DNA of 64,000 bases, taken from Terriglobia bacterium (GTDB lineage Bacteria; Acidobacteriota; Terriglobia; Acidiferrales; UBA7541). The notes under the pieces are model-generated. The model was given only the letters and a program-made list of their open reading frames with translations. It searched no databases and was not told the origin of the DNA. The stretch lies in contig JBGQHF010000002.1 of the NCBI GenBank assembly GCA_041497835.1, positions 16,500 through 80,499 of the forward strand. Reading direction: 5' to 3'. Below, piece after piece: positions 6,366 through 26,139 of this stretch (position 1 is its first letter; the number at the start of each line of letters is the position of its first letter). Made by a program: the position numbers and the translations under genes.

Positions 6366-8642
6366 ATGAGCTCCAATACCATCGGACCCGCGGCTCCCGG
6401 CGGCCGCGGCAGCGCGATCCCACGCGTCATTGTCGCGACAACGGCCCTCCTTACCTTCATCTCGTTCTGGCGCGCCGCGGCCATCGTCCTCAATGACCTC
6501 GCCTCCTCGGCCTACTACGCCGGCGGCGAAGCAGAAGGCTTCGTCGGAAAGTCTGCGCCGTGGTTCATTCTGGCGGTCATGCTCTTTTCCTACGCCGTCC
6601 GCGCCGTGTACGTCGAAAGCTGCAGCATGTTCGTTCGTGGCGGTGTGTACCGCGCCGTCAAGCAGGCGCTGGGCGGCACGCTGGCCAAATTCTCCGTCTC
6701 GGCGTTGATGTTCGACTACATCCTCACAGGGCCAATCAGCGGCGTGACCGCCGGCAAGTATGTTGCCGGCCTCGTAAACGAGCTCTTTGCCTACTTTCAT
6801 GTGCAGGCCTATCTTCAACCAAGCGTAACGGCTGCCGTGTTCGCGGTGGCTGTGACCCTCTATTTCTGGTGGCAAAACATCAAGGGAATTCCCGAATCAA
6901 GCGAAAAAGCGCTGTACATCATGAAGCTCGTCACCGTCATGGTGGTACTGCTCATAGGCTGGTGTTTCTATACAGTTTGGGTCCGCGGCGCCCACCTGCC
7001 GCCGTTCCCGACCGCGAAGACCATTGTTCTCGGGGAGAACGCCTTGGGCTGGCTCCATGGCGTGGAGTTGGGGAAACTGTTTGGACTCGTGGCTATTTTT
7101 GTGGGGCTGGGCCATTCCGTGCTGGCGATGAGCGGGGAGGAGTCCCTCGCTCAGGTCTATCGGGAAATCGAACACCCCAAGCTGCCCAATCTGAAAAAAG
7201 CCGGGCTCGTCATCTTCGTTTATAGCCTCTTGTTTACCTCGTTGGTTTCCTTCTTTGCCGTGATGATCATCCCAGACGACGTGCGTCAGGGCTTTCTGCA
7301 AAATCTGATCGGCGGTCTGGCGATGAACCTCCATGGGCCATTCATCGCGCGGCTGGTCTTTCACGGTTTTGTGGTGGTGGTTGGTACGCTGATCCTGGCC
7401 GGCGCCGTCAATACGGCGATTATCGGCTCGAACGGCGTGTTGAACCGGGTTTCCGAGGATGGCGTTCTGGCTGCTTGGTTCCGGCAGCCGCACCGGCGCT
7501 TTGGGACTTCCTCTCGCATTATCAACATTGTCGTCACGCTTCAGATCATCACAATTCTCATCAGCCGCGGCGACGTCACCTTCCTCGCGAATCTCTATGC
7601 CTTTGGCGTGATCTGGAGTTTCGCGATGAACAGCCTCTCCGTGCTCGTGCTTCGCTACAAACACCCGGGAGAGCGCGAATACCAGGTTCCGTTCAATTTG
7701 CGCATTCGCGGTGTGGAGATTCCCATCGGCCTGGGGCTGATTGCATTGATTTTGTTCATCATCGCCATCGTGAATCTCTTTACGAAACCTGCGGCCACGG
7801 TTTCAGGCGTTGTTTTCTCACTTCTGCTTTTTCTGGTGTTCACGCTTTCGGAGCGCTCTGCGCGCAGGGGGAAAGCCGGCGAGTCTCGCGAGGAAAGCAT
7901 GGACCAGTTCAACCTCGGCCAGGAAAGCGAACTGACTCCCGCTGCCGTCGGTGCGCGCCCGGGCAACATCATCGTACCCGTCAGCAATTACCACTCGCTT
8001 TATCATCTGGGAAGCGTCCTCGACCGGTTCAAGCCAGAGCGCCGTGACGTCGTGGTTCTGCACGTGCGCGTACTGCGCCGCGCCGCTTCCGGCGGGCACG
8101 AACTCGATCCGGAGCAGCTATTTGGAAGTGTCGAGCAGCACCTCTTCTCGCAAGCGCTCTCCATGGCCGAAAAGCGCGGGAAAAGCATCCGTCTCGCGGT
8201 GGTCGGCGCGAACGATCTGTGGGACGGCATCCTGCGCGCCGCGCAGAGCCTCCAGTCCGCCACGATTACCATCGGCACCTCCGCCAAGTGGACCACCGAG
8301 GAACAGGCGCGGCAGATCGGTGATGCTTGGGAAAAGCTGGGCGACCCCAAGCCCCAATTCAATCTGGAAATTCACACTCCCACCGGGGACAAGATTTTCA
8401 AGGTCCTGGGACCTCATGCGCCGAACCTGACGACCAACGAGGTCAATCAGCTCCACCAGCTCTGGCTACGCTTCAGCGAGGTCCTGGCGCCCGAAGAGCT
8501 CCACCACCACGACGTCGTCCATTTCGCGCTGGAGGAAGTGCGGAAGGAGATCGCAGAGGGGAAGGAAGACGAAGTCGTCAAGCGCCTGCGCGACCACATC
8601 GAAGAAAACAAGCGCAAGCGCCCGCCCCGGCCCAGTTCGTAG
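6366..8642 (+). CDS. APC-family permease with a cytoplasmic USP-like C-terminal domain
   Basis: About 12 TM helices, LNDLASSAYY, DYILTGPIS, followed by a soluble domain (IIVPVSN..VVVLHVRV). Confidence 0.8.
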   Translation: MSSNTIGPAAPGGRGSAIPRVIVATTALLTFISFWRAAAIVLNDLASSAYYAGGEAEGFVGKSAPWFILAVMLFSYAVRAVYVESCSMFVRGGVYRAVKQALGGTLAKFSVSALMFDYILTGPISGVTAGKYVAGLVNELFAYFHVQAYLQPSVTAAVFAVAVTLYFWWQNIKGIPESSEKALYIMKLVTVMVVLLIGWCFYTVWVRGAHLPPFPTAKTIVLGENALGWLHGVELGKLFGLVAIFVGLGHSVLAMSGEESLAQVYREIEHPKLPNLKKAGLVIFVYSLLFTSLVSFFAVMIIPDDVRQGFLQNLIGGLAMNLHGPFIARLVFHGFVVVVGTLILAGAVNTAIIGSNGVLNRVSEDGVLAAWFRQPHRRFGTSSRIINIVVTLQIITILISRGDVTFLANLYAFGVIWSFAMNSLSVLVLRYKHPGEREYQVPFNLRIRGVEIPIGLGLIALILFIIAIVNLFTKPAATVSGVVFSLLLFLVFTLSERSARRGKAGESREESMDQFNLGQESELTPAAVGARPGNIIVPVSNYHSLYHLGSVLDRFKPERRDVVVLHVRVLRRAASGGHELDPEQLFGSVEQHLFSQALSMAEKRGKSIRLAVVGANDLWDGILRAAQSLQSATITIGTSAKWTTEEQARQIGDAWEKLGDPKPQFNLEIHTPTGDKIFKVLGPHAPNLTTNEVNQLHQLWLRFSEVLAPEELHHHDVVHFALEEVRKEIAEGKEDEVVKRLRDHIEENKRKRPPRPSS

Positions 8643-19058: not shown

Positions 19059-19767
19059 GGGCTTCTCCTGGCTTCAGAGCATGGATTTCGAGCCCCGCGA
19101 TGCCGCGGGCTTCGCGGCGAAAAGCGTCGGCGGTGCCCGTGAGAAAGGGAAATGTCGAGTAGTGCATCGGAACGACATGCTTCACGCCAAGCAACCGGAC
19201 CGCGTGCGCGGCTTCGCGCGGGCCCATCGTGTACAGATCGCCGATCGGAATACAGGCGACGTCGGGCTTGTAGAGTTCCCCGATGAGTTTCATGTCGCCG
19301 AAGAGCGCGGTGTCGCCCGCATGATAGACGGAGAAGCCGCCGGGCATGCGAATCACAAAGCCGGCGGGCTCTCCGCCGTAGATGCGCGTGCCGTTGTCGT
19401 TGATGGAATTGGAGTGGAACGCGTGAGTCATGGTGACTTCGAAGTCGCCGATTTTCTGCGTGCCGCCCTTGCCCATCGGCCGCGTGAGTTCCTCGAACCC
19501 TTTGGACTCGATCCAGAGACACGTCTCAAAGATGGCGACGATCTGCGGCTTGTGCTGTTTGGCCAAGGCTAGCAGGTCGCCGAGGTGATCGCTGTGGCCG
19601 TGCGTGACGAAGATGGCATCGAGCCGGGCAATGTTTTTGAGCGCATCCGGGCAAACCGGATTCGTCATCAACCAGGAGTCAATCAGCGCCACTTGTCCAG
19701 ACGGCGTCGCAATCGAAAACGTGCTGTGGCCGAAATAGGTGAGGCGATTGCCATTTGTATTGAGCAT
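19051..19767 (-). CDS. Metallo-beta-lactamase-fold hydrolase (UPF0173-like)
   Basis: YFGHS, THGHSDH, AFHSNS, YHAGDT, PMHY. Confidence 0.9.
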   Translation of the reverse strand: MLNTNGNRLTYFGHSTFSIATPSGQVALIDSWLMTNPVCPDALKNIARLDAIFVTHGHSDHLGDLLALAKQHKPQIVAIFETCLWIESKGFEELTRPMGKGGTQKIGDFEVTMTHAFHSNSINDNGTRIYGGEPAGFVIRMPGGFSVYHAGDTALFGDMKLIGELYKPDVACIPIGDLYTMGPREAAHAVRLLGVKHVVPMHYSTFPFLTGTADAFRREARGIAGLEIHALKPGEALA

Positions 19768-19777
19768 AGGACCTTCC

Positions 19778-20341
19778 CTAGTGGCTCGGTTTGTCGTTCG
19801 GTCCACCGTTGGAACCCGAAGCAAGCAGCGTTCGAATCGCCGCTTCAAAGGTCTCACGATCCCCGGCACCGAAGTAGTGGCCGATCTGTCTTCCATCCGC
19901 AGCGTAAAAGAAAGAGGCGGGAAGGGATCCATTCCAGGCGGCGTTGACGGCCCGCACGAATTCGTCGTTCTTTCCCGCGCGCTTGCGGTAGTTCGGAAAG
20001 ACCGGCTGATGGCGCGCCAGGAACCGCCGCACCAGGATCATTTCGCCGTCGTCATCGAGGCTGACGCCGACAACGTGCAGACCTTTCGGTGCGTATTGTT
20101 TTGCGAGCTGGTTGAGGAGCGGGTATTCGTCGCGGCAGGGTTCGCACCAGGTAGCCCAGAAATTCACGAGAAGCGCCTTGCCGCGATACTTCTCGAGGAG
20201 TTGCTTGTACCCCTGCTCGTCGATCAGCTCCGGGTCGCGGGGAGCCTTTGCCTGCGGTGCCGCCAGCGCAGCCGCGGCAGCCAACAAAAGAACCACGCCA
20301 AGCCAAGTCCGGTTTCTCACAGTGATCTCCGTCCCTGGCAT
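19778..20341 (-). CDS. TlpA-family thiol-disulfide oxidoreductase
   Basis: Signal peptide; LLVNFWATWCEPC; LPAS. Confidence 0.88.
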   Translation of the reverse strand: MPGTEITVRNRTWLGVVLLLAAAAALAAPQAKAPRDPELIDEQGYKQLLEKYRGKALLVNFWATWCEPCRDEYPLLNQLAKQYAPKGLHVVGVSLDDDGEMILVRRFLARHQPVFPNYRKRAGKNDEFVRAVNAAWNGSLPASFFYAADGRQIGHYFGAGDRETFEAAIRTLLASGSNGGPNDKPSH

Positions 20342-20361
20342 TCTATCCACTCGCGTCACAG

Positions 20362-20377
20362 TTGAGAATCTGATTCC
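20362..20377 (+). repeat. attL core
   Basis: TTGAGAATCTGATTCC, identical to 24847-24862 (18/19 match if extended by 3 nt). Confidence 0.88.
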
Positions 20378-20438
20378 TCCGTCTAAAACCCCGCCCAAAC
20401 AAAGGCCCGAAGCAACACGGTGTCCAACAGGTGTCCAG

Positions 20439-20759
20439 ATGCTCAAAAGATACGGTAAGTGGATGGCCGACTGGCGGGACCAACACGGCAAGCGCCACAG
20501 GAAAGCCTGCCGCTCGAAGACCGCCGCCGCGCAACTCGGTGCGAAGATGCGCCGATGCGAAGCAGCAAAAAAAGACCAGCCCTCGGGGACATCGGCCAAA
20601 TCCTCACGACGTGGGCGCAAGGCTGGCCGCCGAACACCGCGAACCGCCAAGTCGCGCTCGAACTCACCGCGGAAATCGGCCACCTACAACCGCGCCAACT
20701 CAGCAGCTTCATCGCAGAAGCCTTCTTCGCAAAATGGCGAACACGCTACTCGCCCATGA
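20439..20759 (+). CDS. Integrase arm-domain-like ORF (zero frame); possible N-terminus of a frameshifted integrase
   Basis: MLKRYGKWMADWRDQHGKRHRKACRSKTAAAQ resembles arm-type DNA-binding domains; the A7 run at 20567-20573 joins it to the catalytic frame by a -1 shift. Confidence 0.65.
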   Translation: MLKRYGKWMADWRDQHGKRHRKACRSKTAAAQLGAKMRRCEAAKKDQPSGTSAKSSRRGRKAGRRTPRTAKSRSNSPRKSATYNRANSAASSQKPSSQNGEHATRP

Positions 20760-21403
20760 CGCTCTACACACGCCGAGCCATCTACCAACGACTTCTCGGT
20801 GTCCTCACGCAGTACGGCGCACCGCCCATCAAACTCAGCAAGGTCAGAAAACCAGAACCACGCGGCGTCACCGCAACGCAGGAAGAAATCCAGAAACTTC
20901 TAGGCGCAGCGACGCCGGCACTCCGACTCTTCATCATCCTCTGTTGGCAGCTCGCCCTCCGAAGAAGCGAAGCCCTGGCCGTCACACCGCTGTCCTACGA
21001 CGACAAAACCCATACAGTCTGCATCCGGACCAAAGGCGGAAAGATGCGACGCATCCCGCTCACCAGCGACGCGGAAGAAATGATCCGCGTCGCCAGCAAA
21101 TCCGCAGCAGACCCCTCCGAAAGCTGCGTCTCCATCCTCAACGGAAGGCCGATGAAGCGCATGGACAAACGCTGGTGGCAGCTAACGAAGAAATGCAACC
21201 TCACTCACATCCACCCCCACGACCTCCGCAGAACCACCGCGACGAATCTCTACCGCACGACCCACGACATCCGGGCCGTGCAGCAGTACCTCGGACACAC
21301 ACAACTGGTGTCCACAACCCACTACCTCGCGCCACTCTCCGAGGAGCAGCTGCGCGGGATGCACCAACTCCTCAACTTCCACGGAAAGGGAGCGCCCAAC
21401 TGA
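20555..21403 (+). CDS. Tyrosine recombinase/integrase, core-binding and catalytic portion
   Basis: LALRRSE (R), RTKGGK (K), HPHDLRR (HxxR), LGH...STTHY (H, Y); all catalytic residues present. Confidence 0.92.
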   Translation: MRSSKKRPALGDIGQILTTWAQGWPPNTANRQVALELTAEIGHLQPRQLSSFIAEAFFAKWRTRYSPMTLYTRRAIYQRLLGVLTQYGAPPIKLSKVRKPEPRGVTATQEEIQKLLGAATPALRLFIILCWQLALRRSEALAVTPLSYDDKTHTVCIRTKGGKMRRIPLTSDAEEMIRVASKSAADPSESCVSILNGRPMKRMDKRWWQLTKKCNLTHIHPHDLRRTTATNLYRTTHDIRAVQQYLGHTQLVSTTHYLAPLSEEQLRGMHQLLNFHGKGAPN

Positions 21404-21585
21404 TGGACACCAACAAACACATGACGGACCCGGAAGCCTTCATCGCACTCGGCGACCTACTGCTAGACAACTTCGACCCACAGGACACCATGCACGGCAT
21501 CCTCAGCGACAAAAGGGTGGACGCCATCCTGACCGCGCAGCGTGCCCTCGTGGAACGCATCGCGCGCAACACCCCCATAGGCTAG
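21403..21585 (+). CDS. Element hypothetical protein (60 aa)
   Basis: TGATG overlap with the integrase stop; MDTNKHMTDPEAFIALGDLLLDNFD. Confidence 0.65.
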   Translation: MDTNKHMTDPEAFIALGDLLLDNFDPQDTMHGILSDKRVDAILTAQRALVERIARNTPIG

Positions 21586-21593
21586 AGGACACC

Positions 21594-21782
21594 ATGACGA
21601 ACGTCGCAGACCAAAGATGGATAGTCCGCATCACCTGCGGACCATGGGCCATCCGCGAACTCGTCAACGCCCCGGACCAGCGCATCGCCGCAAACCGCGC
21701 TCTGCAACTCTTCAACCACAAATTCGACCCGGACACCGCGATGACCATCACGGTGTCCCTCCAGCAGGAGCCGCACACATGA
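21594..21782 (+). CDS. Element hypothetical protein (62 aa)
   Basis: RBS-like AGAGGACACC directly before the ATG. Confidence 0.7.
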   Translation: MTNVADQRWIVRITCGPWAIRELVNAPDQRIAANRALQLFNHKFDPDTAMTITVSLQQEPHT

Positions 21783-21937
21783 TTGCCGTCTACTACGTCA
21801 AGCTCCGCAAACCAACACCACCAGCGCGGCCGCACGACAACTGCGCCTGCCGCCACGTCCGGCTACACCACGGGCCGAAACGCGGCCCCTGCACCATCAC
21901 GAACTGCCCCTGTCCGCACTTCAAGAGGACACCATGA
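21779..21937 (+). CDS. Element Cys/His-rich micro-protein (52 aa), putative zinc finger
   Basis: ATGA overlap; CACRHVRLHHGPKRGPCTITNCPCPHF. Confidence 0.65.
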   Translation: MIAVYYVKLRKPTPPARPHDNCACRHVRLHHGPKRGPCTITNCPCPHFKRTP

Positions 21938-22152
21938 GCCGCCGCACCTACCGCTGCGTAATCGAGTGGAACCACCGAAAGTGGGGTCCACAAATGCAGA
22001 AGAGCGTGGCGGAAGGTACCTCGATCCGCCGCGCCATCAACAACGCACTCCTGGCCTTCTTCTCGGACACCAGCCAGCGAGAGCATCGCCGCGACGCCCA
22101 CGCCCACATCGAAATCAAGGCGTGGCGCGTCAAGAAAGAAGCCGCGAAGTGA
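21934..22152 (+). CDS. Element hypothetical protein (72 aa)
   Basis: AGAGGACACC before the ATG; ATGA overlap. Confidence 0.7.
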   Translation: MSRRTYRCVIEWNHRKWGPQMQKSVAEGTSIRRAINNALLAFFSDTSQREHRRDAHAHIEIKAWRVKKEAAK

Positions 22153-22373
22153 CGCCACTCGACGCGCTAGAAATCGCAGCCACCGTCCTGATCGCACTCT
22201 GGTGCGGTCAGACCATCGTGCACATCACCCGAACCGCCATCCGAGAGGACACCGCGACGAAACTCCAGCAAGAGGCAGAGCACGGCGCAACCAAACGCCA
22301 CGTCCGCGACGCCCACGGTCAAGGACACCAAGAAGTCAAACCACCAACACCCAAAGAAAGGAGGACCCCTTGA
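22149..22373 (+). CDS. Element single-TM protein (74 aa)
   Basis: GTGA overlap; LEIAATVLIALWCGQTIVHI hydrophobic segment. Confidence 0.6.
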   Translation: MTPLDALEIAATVLIALWCGQTIVHITRTAIREDTATKLQQEAEHGATKRHVRDAHGQGHQEVKPPTPKERRTP

Positions 22374-22531
22374 ACGAATACACAGTGACCATCAGCGACG
22401 GAATCCTCTCCATCCCGCAAACCGTCACAGCCGAAACCCACAAGGCCGCCGCCCTCGAAGCCCTGACCCATCTCGACGAATCGAAGCTCGACCCAGCGGC
22501 CGACCTCATCATCAACGTCACCACTCCCTGA
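22370..22531 (+). CDS. Element hypothetical protein (53 aa)
   Basis: TTGA overlap, AGGAGG upstream; MNEYTVTISDGILSIPQTVTAE. Confidence 0.6.
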   Translation: MNEYTVTISDGILSIPQTVTAETHKAAALEALTHLDESKLDPAADLIINVTTP

Positions 22532-23598
22532 GCGACCGCAGCGGCGTGCAGGGCTGAGAAGCGCCAGCACGCCGCCGCTCGTCTCACGGAGCCGCAGCGG
22601 CATCGGCGTGCCATCGGCGCATCGCCACGGGCCGCAAGAGGAGCGAGCATGCGGCCCGCGCTCGCGCTGGAAGAAGCACGCCTCACGCCGCTGCTGGTCC
22701 TCGGCCCTCGACCAGCGGTGTCCATCGCCGGACAAATCTCAGAGTTGCGCAGCTGTAAAAAGTGGATGCCTGCGCGCGGCACGCGTTCGGCCGCAAATCG
22801 CTTCGCTGCGTCCTCCGCCGTCGGACAGCCGCGCGAGAATCCCGCGCGGTTCTCGACCTTCACTAGTGCGGTTGCGGCGTCGCAGCATGTCGGTCGCCGC
22901 GCAAAAACAAAAGCGCGCGTCGCCCGCCCTGCGCGCCGCCGCGTCTTCCGGCACGCTCCGCCCCACGCCGTACCGCTCTCCGCACGGCGTGGGGCCCGCG
23001 TCGCGGCGGTCCTCGGCATTCGGCGCGCCCGCATCATCGAAGAACGTTATGAAGGATGCGGGCAAACGCGCCGAAAGCCTGTGGGCCGCGCCCGCGCAGA
23101 ACCAGCGCGGTCGCCGGTTCGTGTCCGTGCCGGAACGGGCCGCGCGGCAGCACCCGCAAAAGAGGGCGGGTGTCATGGCCGCGCGGCCCCGCGCCCCGTG
23201 CATCTCCCCTCGTCCGCAGATCGCCGCTCGTCTGTGCGGGCCACCATAGCGGGCGCGGCCTTCTGCCGCGCCCTGGTGTCCCGCAGCTCGCGGCGTTTTT
23301 TGTTGCGGCGGCTGTCCCGCCGCCGTTCGCGTCTCTATCCGTCCTCGTGTTCGGTCAGGGTCTCCACGGGGCGCGGTCCGTTCCGGCCCGGCCAACGGAT
23401 TATTGAAGAGAAAGAAACACCATCGCCCCGCGCGCCGCAGATCGAGCGATGCGGCGCGCGATGTTGCAGCCTGGGCGACCGCGATCGCGGCTCCTGGCTG
23501 GCGGGGAGCCGCGTTCGCGCTACAATCCCCCACAGCAACAGCCAACCGCTCACTGATCGGAGAGCAACCGCCCGCCACACCACGGCGGGCGGCTCCCC
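22532..23598. other. About 1.06 kb hairpin-dense, probably non-coding region inside the element
   Basis: At least 13 perfect 6-11 bp stems, e.g. 22961-22971/22984-22994, 23138-23148/23178-23188, 23429-23439/23450-23460, 23568-23576/23584-23592. Confidence 0.7.
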
Positions 23599-23919
23599 AT
23601 GACGCCCGCAGAACGCCAGCGCCGCTATCGACAGAGGCACCAAGACGAAGAGAAAAACCGTCGAGCCTCACCCCACCACAAGGAAACTCTGGCGCGCTGC
23701 AAAGCCCGCCGCGACCCCAACCGCGATCGCGAGCACAAACAAGAGCTCTACTTCCGCTTCCACGGCCACCACCACTCCGGATGCAACGCTCTGCAACTCA
23801 AAACGCCGCGCCTGTCATGGCTGGACACCGCAGGCCGCATCCACCACGACGACCTCCGCTCGGCCGAAGAAGTGATCGCCGAGCACGAAGAGAAGGAAAA
23901 AAGGGAGTCCTCACAATGA
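23599..23919 (+). CDS. Element hypothetical protein (106 aa)
   Basis: Basic helical N-terminus MTPAERQRRYRQRH; element-type codon bias. Confidence 0.7.
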   Translation: MTPAERQRRYRQRHQDEEKNRRASPHHKETLARCKARRDPNRDREHKQELYFRFHGHHHSGCNALQLKTPRLSWLDTAGRIHHDDLRSAEEVIAEHEEKEKRESSQ

Positions 23920-24224
23920 GCAAGCTGACGCCAAAAGACGCACGCAATCTCCTCGACGTTTACTTCCAGAAGGACACCAACAGCGAGACAGTCGCCGAAG
24001 CAGACCGCGACGCAAAAATCTGGCTGCGAGCGCAGACCGCAATCGTGAAAGGACACCACGCCCGCGAGCTCGCCGAAATCCACTTCGCCGACCTGTCCGG
24101 CAAAGCCACACCTACACAGCTCGAGCTACGCAACCAACTGATGAAAACAATCTGGCTGCAGGCCGAGAGCGAACAACTCGCCAGTGAGGAGGCCGCCGCC
24201 CATGCCGAAACCCACGAAACTTGA
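23916..24224 (+). CDS. Element hypothetical protein (102 aa)
   Basis: ATGA overlap with GGAG upstream; MSKLTPKDARNLLDVYFQKD. Confidence 0.7.
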   Translation: MSKLTPKDARNLLDVYFQKDTNSETVAEADRDAKIWLRAQTAIVKGHHARELAEIHFADLSGKATPTQLELRNQLMKTIWLQAESEQLASEEAAAHAETHET

Positions 24225-24417
24225 GGAGCGCCTGCAGCTGCTCGACGCCGAGCGACTCGTGCTCACCGTAGAGCTCCGCTGCGAGCTCATGCGCCAGGCG
24301 AAGAAACTCCTGCCCGCCGCGATCGCGCAGGCGCGCGCGAAGAAGGGAAGCCCCGCGCTGCTCCGAATCATCACCCGCCTGGCCATGAGGCCCGCCAACA
24401 TCGAGAGAAGGCACTGA
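24202..24417 (+). CDS. Element hypothetical helical protein (71 aa)
   Basis: GAGGAGG upstream; MPKPTKLEERLQLLDAERL. Confidence 0.65.
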   Translation: MPKPTKLEERLQLLDAERLVLTVELRCELMRQAKKLLPAAIAQARAKKGSPALLRIITRLAMRPANIERRH

Positions 24418-24846
24418 GAGCGCCGAGCGCGAAGCGCGACCGCGCCCTCAGCTCAACCAAATCCGAAAAACCGTGGGACCTCACACCCACGACCCAAAAT
24501 CGAGCGCCGCCGCTGACGTCGTGGAAGTCAACTCACTTCACTTCCAAACAACACCGCGCCTCGGGCGGCCCGGCCAGATCGGCTAGCTGTCCGGGCCGCT
24601 GCTACTCGGCGCAGATCCCCAGCTCGACCCTAAACGACCGATAATCGCCCAAAGCGCCGACCGACAAACACGCTGTCACGCACAAACCACCACCCCACCA
24701 CCCTGCCGGTCCCCGACCCGCCCCGACGGACACCAAACCCGCCAAGTGTCCAACAAACCGCTGGACACCGCAGCGAAAAGAGCGTAGACCGATAGCACAG
24801 ATGGACACCGCAGCCTATCGGACCGCAAGAGGCAGGGGCAATAGAT

Positions 24847-24862
24847 TTGAGAATCTGATTCC
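24847..24862 (+). repeat. attR core
   Basis: TTGAGAATCTGATTCC, identical to 20362-20377. Confidence 0.88.
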
Positions 24863-24875
24863 CCCCGCGTAGAAT
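24847..24875 (+). promoter_or_regulatory. Sigma70-type promoter for ferredoxin, overlapping attR
   Basis: TTGAGA (24847-24852), 17 nt, TAGAAT (24870-24875). Confidence 0.55.
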
Positions 24876-24991
24876 CAGGAGAGTCGGCTTGTTCCACCCA
24901 GCGGAGACGTGCTATAAAAGCCGTTTCGCCGGCAGGACTTCCGTCTGGAGAAGCCGCCGATTTGACCGGACCACGCTAAAGGAGATTCCTG

Positions 24992-25258
24992 ATGGCTTAC
25001 GTGATTGCCGAACCGTGCATCGGCACAAAGGACACCGCGTGTGTGGACGTCTGCCCGGTGGATTGCATCCACCCGCGCAAGGACGAGCCGAATTTCGAGA
25101 GCGAGACGCAGCTCTACATCCATCCGACCGAGTGCATAGACTGCGGAGCGTGCGTGCCGGTCTGCCCCGTCACCGCGATCTTTGCTCTGGAAGACCTGCC
25201 GGAGAAGTGGCAGAACTTCACGCCGATCAACGCGGATTGGTTCGCAAAGAAGGTCTAA
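24992..25258 (+). CDS. 2[4Fe-4S]-type ferredoxin
   Basis: [17 protein letters not shown] and [12 protein letters not shown]. Confidence 0.95.
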
Positions 25259-25342
25259 GACATCCTCGATCCGGGCGCGGATTCGCGCTCGATTTTGGCG
25301 GCGTGCCCAGGCACGCCGCATTTTCTTTTTGGATGGATTGGC

Positions 25343-25801
25343 CTAGAGATCGAGCCGAGCCAAACTTTCGCCGCGCGCCATGCCGCCAAGCGTGCGCTTG
25401 CGCACGTCGTCAAAGGTCGTGGCGAAGAGGATTTTTTCGACCGCCTCCTGAACATCCTGCCACACCTGTTTCAGCCCGCAGCTCTCGGTTTCCGGGCAGA
25501 CATATCCCCGGGATTCCTCGTTCTCCGAACAACTGGATTGCGTGAAATCGCCGTCCACGACCCGGAGCACCTCGCCCACGGTGATTTTCTCCGGCGACCG
25601 CGCCAGGGTGTAGCCGCCGTGCACCCCGCGCCGGCTGTCCAGCACGCCGCCGCGCCTCAATTCCAGAAGGATGTGTTCGAGGTACTTGAGAGGAATGCGA
25701 TGCCGCCGCGCGATCTCCTGGATGGTGACGACTTCCGGATAAAGCAGCGCCAGGTGCAGGACGGCCTTGGTTGCGTATTCGCCTTTCGCTGTGACGCGCA
25801 T
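25343..25801 (-). CDS. Rrf2-family transcriptional regulator
   Basis: KGEYA, IPLKYLEHILLELRRGG, SRRGVHGGY; three C-terminal Cys. Confidence 0.92.
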   Translation of the reverse strand: MRVTAKGEYATKAVLHLALLYPEVVTIQEIARRHRIPLKYLEHILLELRRGGVLDSRRGVHGGYTLARSPEKITVGEVLRVVDGDFTQSSCSENEESRGYVCPETESCGLKQVWQDVQEAVEKILFATTFDDVRKRTLGGMARGESLARLDL

Positions 25802-25941
25802 GGAAGAACCGAATGAGGCTCCAGCCTTTCACACCACTCGCCGCGTGTCAATCTTCGGCGCCGCCTGGTGCTGTCCTAACTCGTGTGATGGGCAAGCCAA
25901 AGGCCGCGAATATCAATTGGCGCGGTAAAAATGGAATCTAT

Positions 25942-26139
25942 CTAGCGGACGCAGACAAGCCGCTGGGGTTTCCACACTAAAAAGGTGAGTGCTCCAATGA
26001 AGAGGGCTGCTTCAATCCAATCTTTGGCTGGATGGCCCTTAAATAAGAAAGCAGTGGCGATGAAGGCAGATGCCCAAACAAGCGACCCGATAACGAGCGA
26101 TGTTCCGTGCGTTTTAGATTTAGACATCATAAAAGGCAT
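25942..26139 (-). CDS. Small two-TM hypothetical protein
   Basis: Two hydrophobic segments; lower GC. Confidence 0.45.
   Translation of the reverse strand: MPFMMSKSKTHGTSLVIGSLVWASAFIATAFLFKGHPAKDWIEAALFIGALTFLVWKPQRLVCVR

Follow-up and report, generated by a model that had tools for sequence, protein, structure and literature searches.

A heptamer dispersed through a 4.5-kb integrative element of Terriglobia is most likely the arm-type site of its two-frame integrase

The element and its heptamer

The window analysed here is a stretch of 64,000 nt from the chromosome of a Terriglobia (acidobacterial) bacterium, and its region 20362-24862 is a 4.5-kb integrative element, whose neighbours are a thioredoxin-like gene (− strand) on one side and a ferredoxin gene on the other (table 1). 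The element encodes a tyrosine integrase (int) and about nine open reading frames (ORFs) of 50-106 aa; none besides int exceeds about 110 aa. The heptamer GGACACC is dispersed through the element, in its genes and at both of its ends, and our results suggest that it is most likely the arm-type recognition site of the N-terminal domain (N-domain) of the integrase. The analysis rests on the excess of the motif, its conservation and its variants in relatives, the layout of the element ends, the covariation between one residue and one base, and a two-frame integrase gene with a slip site.

Counted on both strands, GGACACC occurs 26 times in the window, whereas dinucleotide shuffles give 6.02 ± 2.53 copies (maximum 12, n=100). 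Twenty-one copies lie within positions 20419-24809 of the 4,485-bp element, where no other 7-mer is as frequent. The host flanks contain five (874, 10532, 17209, 25030 and 32957) in 59.5 kb, which is the chance level, about six being expected in the whole window. The edges of the core are sharp, with 24 copies of GGACAC, 22 of GACACC and 21 of the full heptamer, and a logo of 131 copies from seven elements reads W-GGACACC-R, with zero information beyond 9 bp.

The excess stays under a Markov as well as under a codon-shuffled background. An order-3 Markov model predicts 2.4 copies in the element. When synonymous codons were swapped among the ten element ORFs, keeping the proteins and the codon usage, 2.7 copies were expected on the + strand and 0.13 on the − strand, against 10 and 3 seen, and the observed total of 13 (about 2.8 expected) was reached by none of 3000 shuffles. 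For comparison with real sequences, 750 windows of 4.6 kb were taken from about 150 unrelated integrase loci and from the remainder of the window; the z-score of the best 7-mer in these has a median of 3.8, a 99th percentile of 6.3 and a maximum of 6.7, against 11.0 in the element.

Seven of the 21 copies are antisense to int and the rest are on the + strand. Because the A/C-rich composition favours the + orientation about 20-fold, the + strand excess needs no special cause, and in the codon shuffle it is the − copies that are relatively more enriched. An orientation rule like that of phage stoperators, considered on account of the + strand bias, was therefore dropped. Inside ORFs, where 13 of the 16 internal copies are found, the heptamer is read in three frames, as Asp-Thr, Gly-His or Arg-Thr-Pro (checked against the ORF coordinates), and only 2-4 of the 21 copies adjoin a start codon. 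Two longer repeats contain it, TGGACACCGCAG at 23822, 24762 and 24802, and AGAGGACACC at 21584, 21924 and 22244.

An earlier note on this DNA, made from the letters alone, had reported at least 20 copies across the element, about five outside it, and these longer repeats. All 20 of its coordinates are right and a single copy had been missed (20798, −); its list of outside copies proved complete, and the longer repeats stand at the positions it gave. It had also argued for selection at the level of the nucleic acid, and this is borne out by an excess of the motif that withstands codon- and skew-aware null models, by its presence, unchanged or with one base altered, in homologous elements, and by the conservation of the copies described below.

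Table 1. Positions of the features of the element and of one relative. Coordinates are those of the window unless a contig is named.
Feature	Position	Strand	Remarks
attL, 16-bp core direct repeat TTGAGAATCTGATTCC	20362-20377	+	left end; repeat family match (19 nt, 95%) and direct reading
Putative P′ arm, tandem heptamers 20419-20425 and 20430-20436	20419-20436	−	starts 11 bp apart; 2 nt between the end of the second copy and the int ATG
int, 0-frame ORF	20439-20759	+	N-terminal arm-binding-like domain (MLKRYGKWMADWRDQHGKRHRKA...) and basic Ser/Arg/Lys tail; 106 aa without shift
Slippery heptamer A_AAA_AAA	20567-20573	+	X_XXY_YYZ register of the 0 frame; proposed −1 frameshift site
int, −1-frame part	20573-21403	+	core-binding and catalytic domains (PF00589); domain and profile matches
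Internal heptamer in int	20798-20804	−	exact count; position conserved in L081; absent from the earlier note
Internal heptamer in int	21307-21313	−	exact count; position conserved in L081
Internal heptamer over the start codon of a 60-aa ORF	21405-21411	+	atGGACACC; ATGGACACC overlaps the start at 21403
Internal heptamer	21483-21489	+	exact count
Internal heptamer adjoining the ATG of ORF 21594-21782	21587-21593	+	AGAGGACACCATG; GGA extends Shine-Dalgarno-like GAGGA
Inverted heptamer pair, 21731 (+) and 21752 (−)	21731-21758		21 bp apart; exact count
Internal heptamer adjoining the ATG of OrfD (21934)	21927-21933	+	
OrfD, 72 aa	21934-22152	+	conserved more than the integrase across homologues
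Internal heptamer in OrfD	22065-22071	+	
Internal heptamer	22247-22253	+	
Internal heptamer	22323-22329	+	
Internal heptamer, GC-rich central region	22717-22723	−	
Internal heptamer, GC-rich central region	23275-23281	−	
Internal heptamer	23823-23829	+	12-mer TGGACACCGCAG as in two P-arm copies
Internal heptamer	23972-23978	+	
Internal heptamer	24051-24057	+	
OrfI, 68 aa	24211-24417	+	kept in most relatives; last gene ahead of the P arm
Putative P arm: 24728 (+), imperfect GGACACT 24745-24751 (−), 24763 (+), 24803 (+)	24728-24809		spacing 17, 18 and 40 bp
attR, copy of the core direct repeat	24847-24862	+	right end; repeat search; overlaps the −35 of TTGAGA-17-TAGAAT upstream of the ferredoxin gene
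L177 element	5848-9209 of contig JBAIHT010000005.1		NCBI metagenome-assembled genome; 19-bp direct repeat TTAAGGATACACGCGGTAA

Variants of the heptamer in related elements

Among 5.8 billion proteins the integrase has 45 close homologues. A scan based on the homologue alignment located relatives of the element at seven loci in metagenome-assembled genomes of Terriglobia, Candidatus Acidoferrum and Granulicella and at about 30 in soil and peat metagenomes; no close relative was found among the viral contigs of IMG/VR. These sequences (individual loci are given as L numbers) define a family of 3.4-5.3-kb Terriglobia elements that was previously unannotated.

Almost every reasonably complete relative (about 20 elements) has a dispersed heptamer of its own, which is GGACACC, GGAGACC or TGACACC (z 6.9-9.4, with 1.5-3.5 copies expected); the integrases of these relatives are 33-70% identical. 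GGACACC is present in 18 copies in L081, 16 in L086, 22 in L087, 26 in L092, 16 in L003 and 13 in L005, and GGAGACC in 25 copies in L085/L001, 20 in L101, 12 in L096 and 17 in L094; TGACACC is mixed with GGACACC in L090, L098, L084 and L082. Few copies depart from the central base that prevails in their element: elements of the C type have 131 copies of GGACACC versus 7 of GGAGACC, and those of the G type 4 versus 57. Where pairs of elements can be aligned, 38 of 61 copies (62%) are fully conserved, compared with 23% of the other 7-mer windows; distant members do not share the sites of their internal copies. This pattern indicates purifying selection combined with turnover of the copies.

Arm sites and the N-domain of the integrase

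The pair of heptamers ahead of int and the cluster at the far end are repeated sites on both sides of a core with direct-repeat junctions, and their spacing is conserved in relatives. The tandem pair, both copies on the − strand at a distance of 11 bp, was found in all nine elements scored for spacing, and most relatives show it ahead of the start codon of int; in the closer ones its second copy ends 0-4 nt ahead of that codon. At the far end most relatives have three copies in the order + − + at 17/17-18 bp, often with a further + copy at 40 bp. In the excised circle these two groups would flank the 16-bp core at about 40-45 bp on each side, and their arrangement is that of classical P and P′ arms of attP. 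The end clusters had been taken for integrase arm sites in the earlier note as well, a reading upheld by the layout common to the family and by the covariation of the arm sequence with a residue of the N-domain.

In all relatives with a readable 5′ part, an N-domain of the form M.KKYGK(W/F/Y)YADWRDEHGKRHRKAF.TK.AA... is encoded in another frame upstream of the annotated integrase ORF. In its sequence pattern it resembles the arm-binding domains of phage integrases, which are small and consist of a sheet plus a helix. The fused protein is collinear with the phrog_1 integrase profile (residues 4-313 against profile positions 120-448, 119 bits), and joining the N-domain to the catalytic part extends this match from residues 49-306 to residues 4-313 and adds 12 bits. 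The AP2 domain, which is the fold class of the Tn916 and λ arm-binding domains, gives weak, sub-threshold matches (PF00847, E ~0.03) in 4 of the 24 N-domain members, and in the PDB the family profile of the N-domain matches an AP2 domain weakly, at E 0.43. The catalytic part matches PF00589 with an E value of 1e-24, and R168, K192, H254, R257, H280 and Y289 do not vary across the family alignment of 27 sequences.

One position of the N-domain follows the central base of the heptamer. The X of the motif HGKRH-X-KAF is an Arg wherever the arms are of the C type (16 elements, with GGACACC, TGACACC or GGACAGC), a Met or an Ala in all eight elements with GGAGAC arms, and a Glu in the sole GGTGACC element; the covariation is perfect over 25 elements. 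The rule was formed on L085, L002, L089 and L088 and was then right for the arms of L093, L104, L094 and L177. The catalytic part gives a neighbour-joining tree, a crude one, in which the G/Met state is found at no fewer than three places; the association of residue and base is therefore not a single inherited event. From this covariation of one residue with one base we infer that the N-domain binds the arm sites, and the heptamer is most likely its arm-type recognition site.

OrfD and OrfI, the other two proteins kept across the family, show in comparison no sequence difference between the C and G types and do not track the central base; these two proteins were rejected as readers of the heptamer for want of covariation with the motif type.

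A split integrase gene with a slip site

In all relatives with a readable 5′ part the int gene is split over two frames, the catalytic frame being −1 with respect to that of the N-domain (the arrangement was seen in L001-L005, L081-L109, L177 and L180). Independent assemblies from many samples agree on it, which excludes sequencing error as the cause. At the overlap of the two ORFs, 22 of the 24 relatives have a canonical in-register heptamer of the type X_XXY_YYZ: 19 of them show A_AAA_AAA, one shows A_AAA_AAG, and two distant relatives show C_CCA_AAA. The last version argues for ribosomal and not transcriptional slippage. The site is at codon 42-44, or at codon 52-53 in L004 and L105, which have an N-terminal extension. 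Its Lys codons are AAA nearly throughout the relatives, and since AAG makes up 40% of the Lys codons of the element, this near-uniformity is not due to drift. Direct reading of the sequence upstream of the slip site made no Shine-Dalgarno-like sequence visible.

It is probable, judging from the conserved site, that a programmed −1 frameshift yields a free arm-binding domain in addition to the full integrase. Whether the catalytic part is made as a fusion or from a separate start, the main product is predicted to be the N-domain in free form, 51-121 aa long and with a basic tail that varies in length. Database homologues of the integrase mostly begin at or past the slip site, because gene callers split or truncate the gene there; the 0-frame product has one homologue only in the protein database, since its ORF is passed over in gene calling. 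Frameshifting of a tyrosine integrase was not found described in a full-text literature search, in a genome-wide survey of frame transitions that are conserved (PMC3711429) or in a large recoding review (PMC5009743).

Proposed role of the dispersed sites

The explanation that we favour, and consider rather probable, is that the heptamer is an arm-type site, that the internal copies are extra sites for the N-domain, that int is a two-frame gene which also releases its arm-binding domain in free form, and that occupancy of these sites most likely serves to control the entire element. Ribosomes that do not shift would produce the free arm-binding domain with its basic tail, and the minority that shift would produce the full-length integrase. 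The approximately 16 internal copies would then be added binding sites for both N-domain proteins, the free product and the full integrase, and selection would keep them matched to the specificity of their own element. The earlier note had suggested that a protein of the element marks it as a whole; this stands in outline, in that the internal copies match the central base of the arms, but the likely reader is not a small-ORF product; it is the N-domain of the integrase, which the conserved slip site would set free as a protein of its own, a point absent from the earlier note.

Several uses of such sites can be proposed. The tandem P′ sites overlap the ribosome-binding and promoter region of int, and their occupation would result in autorepression. 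The internal sites might dampen transcription through the small genes in a stoperator-like manner, although the defining features of stoperators are not found here; they might act as decoys that draw off free integrase and thereby give it a sharp threshold; or they might keep out arriving relatives that are of their own type, and the diversification by a single base would then be accounted for. The free domain itself could act at the arms as a competitor or directionality factor, in a way resembling OrfA of IS1/IS3. Binding, the frameshift and its efficiency, and the role of the internal sites are what we infer from the observations above.

On a wider view, which we put forward tentatively and consider less likely than not, these minimal elements would combine a −1 frameshift that gives two integrase proteins, arm sites that form an operator and decoy network, and one-base switches that define 'immunity' groups (the C, G and T variants, followed by one residue). 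If true, recombination directionality, silencing and element exclusion would be united in one 45-residue domain.

Certain observations weigh against the explanation that we favour. Concerning the sites, the element L177 (3.36 kb) has six GGAGACC copies in its arms (2 + 4) and zero internal ones. This arms-only state means that integration can do without the dispersed copies, which are an accessory added in certain lineages. The internal copies are mostly single sites in coding sequence, away from obvious promoters, and a monomer site of 7-9 bp is weak without cooperative binding. Concerning the integrase, RNAalifold gave 0 conserved pairs over the 100 nt downstream of the slip site, that is, no stimulatory structure. 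Some relatives have an ATG or GTG in the −1 frame just upstream of this site, so that the catalytic part could initiate independently, giving two proteins and not a fusion. The AlphaFold model of the 0-frame product, built on an alignment of two sequences only, has a pLDDT of 58, and the fold tentatively assigned to the N-domain comes from sub-threshold AP2 matches and the profile alignment. Concerning activity, the Logan contigs of four sediment metagenomes contain the integrated form only, with no excised circle, attP/attB junction or empty site, and the element was not found in any metatranscriptome run.

Alternative explanations

The internal copies could be read by another protein of the element (OrfD, OrfI or a further small ORF) or by a helper phage or conjugative element, serving in packaging, transfer or self-recognition, in which case the arms would simply have the word in common with them; we consider this unlikely. 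Family searches of the element proteins recognised no gene for replication, packaging or transfer, so that the element is probably helper-dependent, and OrfD, which is more conserved than the integrase, has a predicted fold like that of the nucleic-acid-binding eL20/LX domain (TM 0.7, E 0.1). There is a precedent in Streptomyces, where the translocase TraB reads plasmid-specific 8-mers (TRS). However, the internal copies change their central base in step with the arms and with the residue of the N-domain, while OrfD and OrfI are alike in C-type and G-type elements, and a helper or host reader is not expected to alter its specificity between close relatives. Moreover, the element has no translocase gene and the viral contigs of IMG/VR contain no close relative of it. 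With neither a packaging nor a transfer gene found, the packaging tag of the earlier note is unsupported.

Still less likely, in our estimate, is an action of the motif in RNA or translation, as Shine-Dalgarno-like GGA, as start-associated sequences or as translational operators. What speaks for it is the position of a few copies: AGAGGACACC-ATG stands directly before ORF 21594 and OrfD (21934), ATGGACACC lies over the start at 21403, and in L180, which is the same element as L086, the called genes at 7819 and 8034 are each directly preceded by a heptamer (7812 and 8027). Furthermore, GGAGACC contains GGAG, and copies on the sense strand are commoner. Yet all but 2-4 of the 21 copies lie away from starts, seven are antisense, and six are in the non-coding arms with a fixed layout of the recombination type. 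The sense bias is what composition predicts, the antisense copies being relatively more enriched; the variants TGACACC and GGTGACC lose GGA/GGAG, and the covariation is with a DNA-binding domain. Translational operators, also suggested in the earlier note, may accordingly apply to those few copies at most and not to the rest.

A signal directed at the host, either Chi-like (protection from RecBCD/AddAB) or a restriction-modification, methylation or uptake site, is very improbable. Words that are short, non-palindromic and over-represented do characterise Chi as well as Type IIS, IIL and BREX sites, and GGAGACC contains the Type IIS word GGTCTC/GAGACC, but the host flanks are at chance level, related Terriglobia elements use other variants, the copies are in both orientations and the variant follows a residue encoded by the element. 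Finally, a by-product of composition, codon usage or repeated peptides can be dismissed: the A/C-rich + strand (GC skew −0.17, AT skew +0.33) does raise the expected number of GGACACC, but only to 2-3 copies under the codon shuffle and the order-3 Markov model, the empirical null falls far short of the element, the copies are found on either strand, in three reading frames and also outside coding sequence, and relatives of the same composition differ in the central base.

Relation to known systems

The heterobivalent tyrosine integrases (λ Int, Tn916 Int, L5 Int and IntS of KplE1) combine a PF00589 domain with a small N-terminal domain, as the present integrase probably does, and their systems likewise have short non-core repeats on both sides of the crossover as well as direct-repeat att junctions. 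Unlike here, their arm sites are found only in attP, about 5-7 per element, whereas about three quarters of the copies in the present element are far from attP; a further difference is the change of frame between the arm-binding domain and the rest of the protein. Arm-type sites over the int promoter serve as operators in the case of IntS of KplE1 (PMC2951348).

On the one hand, the dispersed copies recall the stoperators of Cluster A mycobacteriophages, the sequence of which diverges between relatives together with its repressor. Both are asymmetric words with more than 20 copies in a mobile genome, and the stoperators are bound by a monomeric protein of the element, L5 gp71 (PMC9283540; PMC6550527). 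On the other hand, stoperators are 13-mers in short intergenic gaps with an orientation tied to transcription, while the present word has 7-9 bp and is mostly in genes. Their repressor, with a helix-turn-helix and a 'stoperator domain', is unrelated to the integrase, while the candidate reader here is the N-domain of the integrase, and no element protein matches a gp71-like repressor in Pfam, PHROG or NCBIfam.

In the OrfA/OrfAB system of IS1 and IS3, A_AAA_AAA/G parts a DNA-binding ORF from a −1 catalytic ORF, and the unshifted product can regulate the enzyme. The slippery heptamer of int has the same place between a putative DNA-binding and a −1 catalytic ORF. Here, however, the enzyme is a tyrosine recombinase and not a DDE transposase, no downstream structure was detected by RNAalifold, and the sites extend beyond the ends of the element to its interior. 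The start-associated sequence (SAS) of Cluster K mycobacteriophages (PMC3203893) is reportedly a repeated word directly upstream of several start codons, over the ribosome-binding site; some of our heptamers are at starts too, but these are a minority, and the word is also present in recombination arms and on both strands. From TraB/TRS (clt) and FtsK/KOPS the element differs in that no FtsK-like translocase domain or gene was found in it.

Arm-type sites are textbook parts of attP, and we know of no case in which they are spread through a whole element; nor, to our knowledge, is there a tyrosine integrase with a programmed frameshift that frees its arm-binding domain. The combination of arm sites, dispersed operator words and recoding of the OrfA/OrfAB kind has not been described before. 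If confirmed, it would add a new case of recoding in a very large family of enzymes, whose members of this type are now split or truncated by gene callers. It would also provide a natural code of one residue and one base for an AP2-like domain, useful for re-targeting integrases, and a compact model (one domain, one 9-bp word, 4.5 kb) of how an element marks itself and distinguishes itself from relatives. The family is defined in Terriglobia, an abundant group of soil bacteria that is genetically poorly charted.

Borders, small genes and central region

The att core is within a divergent promoter region. At attR (region 24847-24875) the sequence TTGAGA-17-TAGAAT (10/12) points toward the ferredoxin gene, and on the attL side (region 20340-20377) TTCTCA-17-TAGAAT is directed at the thioredoxin-like gene. 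Integration therefore duplicates the −35 element, and both neighbours keep a promoter-like site. No tRNA gene is present in the 64-kb window. The same element sequence was found, integrated, in at least ten sediment metagenomes. In the runs X1-X4 (window 19300-26000) the assembler depth of the element contig is 19, 16, 16 and 14, versus 24, 22-26, 27 and 18 for the right flank. This hints that part of the population is without the element, contig depth being a coarse measure.

The asymmetry of the int-sense strand, with A over T and C over G, extends to the non-coding right end and is common to the family. In the present element (20380-24846) and in L085, L086, L090, L003, L005, L084, L094 and L177, the AT skew is +0.17 to +0.39 and the GC skew −0.07 to −0.20, the non-coding right arm included. 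Their G+C content is 2-10 points over that of the host flanks. The asymmetry may reflect the replication mode, or a transcription or mutation bias. Upstream of int, L089, L002 and L091 have sequence similar to that of L177. An inverted heptamer pair of 18-21 bp, similar to that at 21731/21752, occurs once in five other relatives.

The integrase is the only element protein with a family match; the small ORFs gave none in Pfam, PHROG and NCBIfam. In an all-against-all clustering the ORFs of the elements fell into one cluster, owing to low-complexity, Arg/Pro/Ala-rich spurious ORFs. OrfD has 52 homologues of 54-77% identity and no Pfam family, and its AlphaFold model (pLDDT 91) has a ββ-αα-β arrangement, for which the domain of ribosomal protein eL20/LX is the top structural match. 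OrfG (23599-23919; also at 8745-9041 in L177 and in the L086 region) is an Arg/Lys-rich protein of about 100 aa, encoded after the central region, and in several relatives the pattern RRY.QR ... L..P.L.YLD..GR ... SAEE.I..W..E..K was recognised in it by eye. As cargo, L087 has an ORF whose sequence pattern looks DUF4326-like.

The central stretch (22540-23600, about 1 kb) is GC-rich, at 68-74%, and compares with 2644-3434 in L087, 2812-3542 in L092 and 7330-8745 in L177. It contains no convincing ORF and no Rfam match, and Rfam gave nothing credible elsewhere in the element or in four relatives. The stretch is poorly conserved in the family, save for 48 nt (23184-23230) that it has in common with L087 and L092. 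Between these two relatives the central module is 97% identical over 732 bp and the remainder 74-82%, which suggests a possible recent exchange or a nested mobile module. The central region of L177 contains direct repeats of up to about 100 bp.

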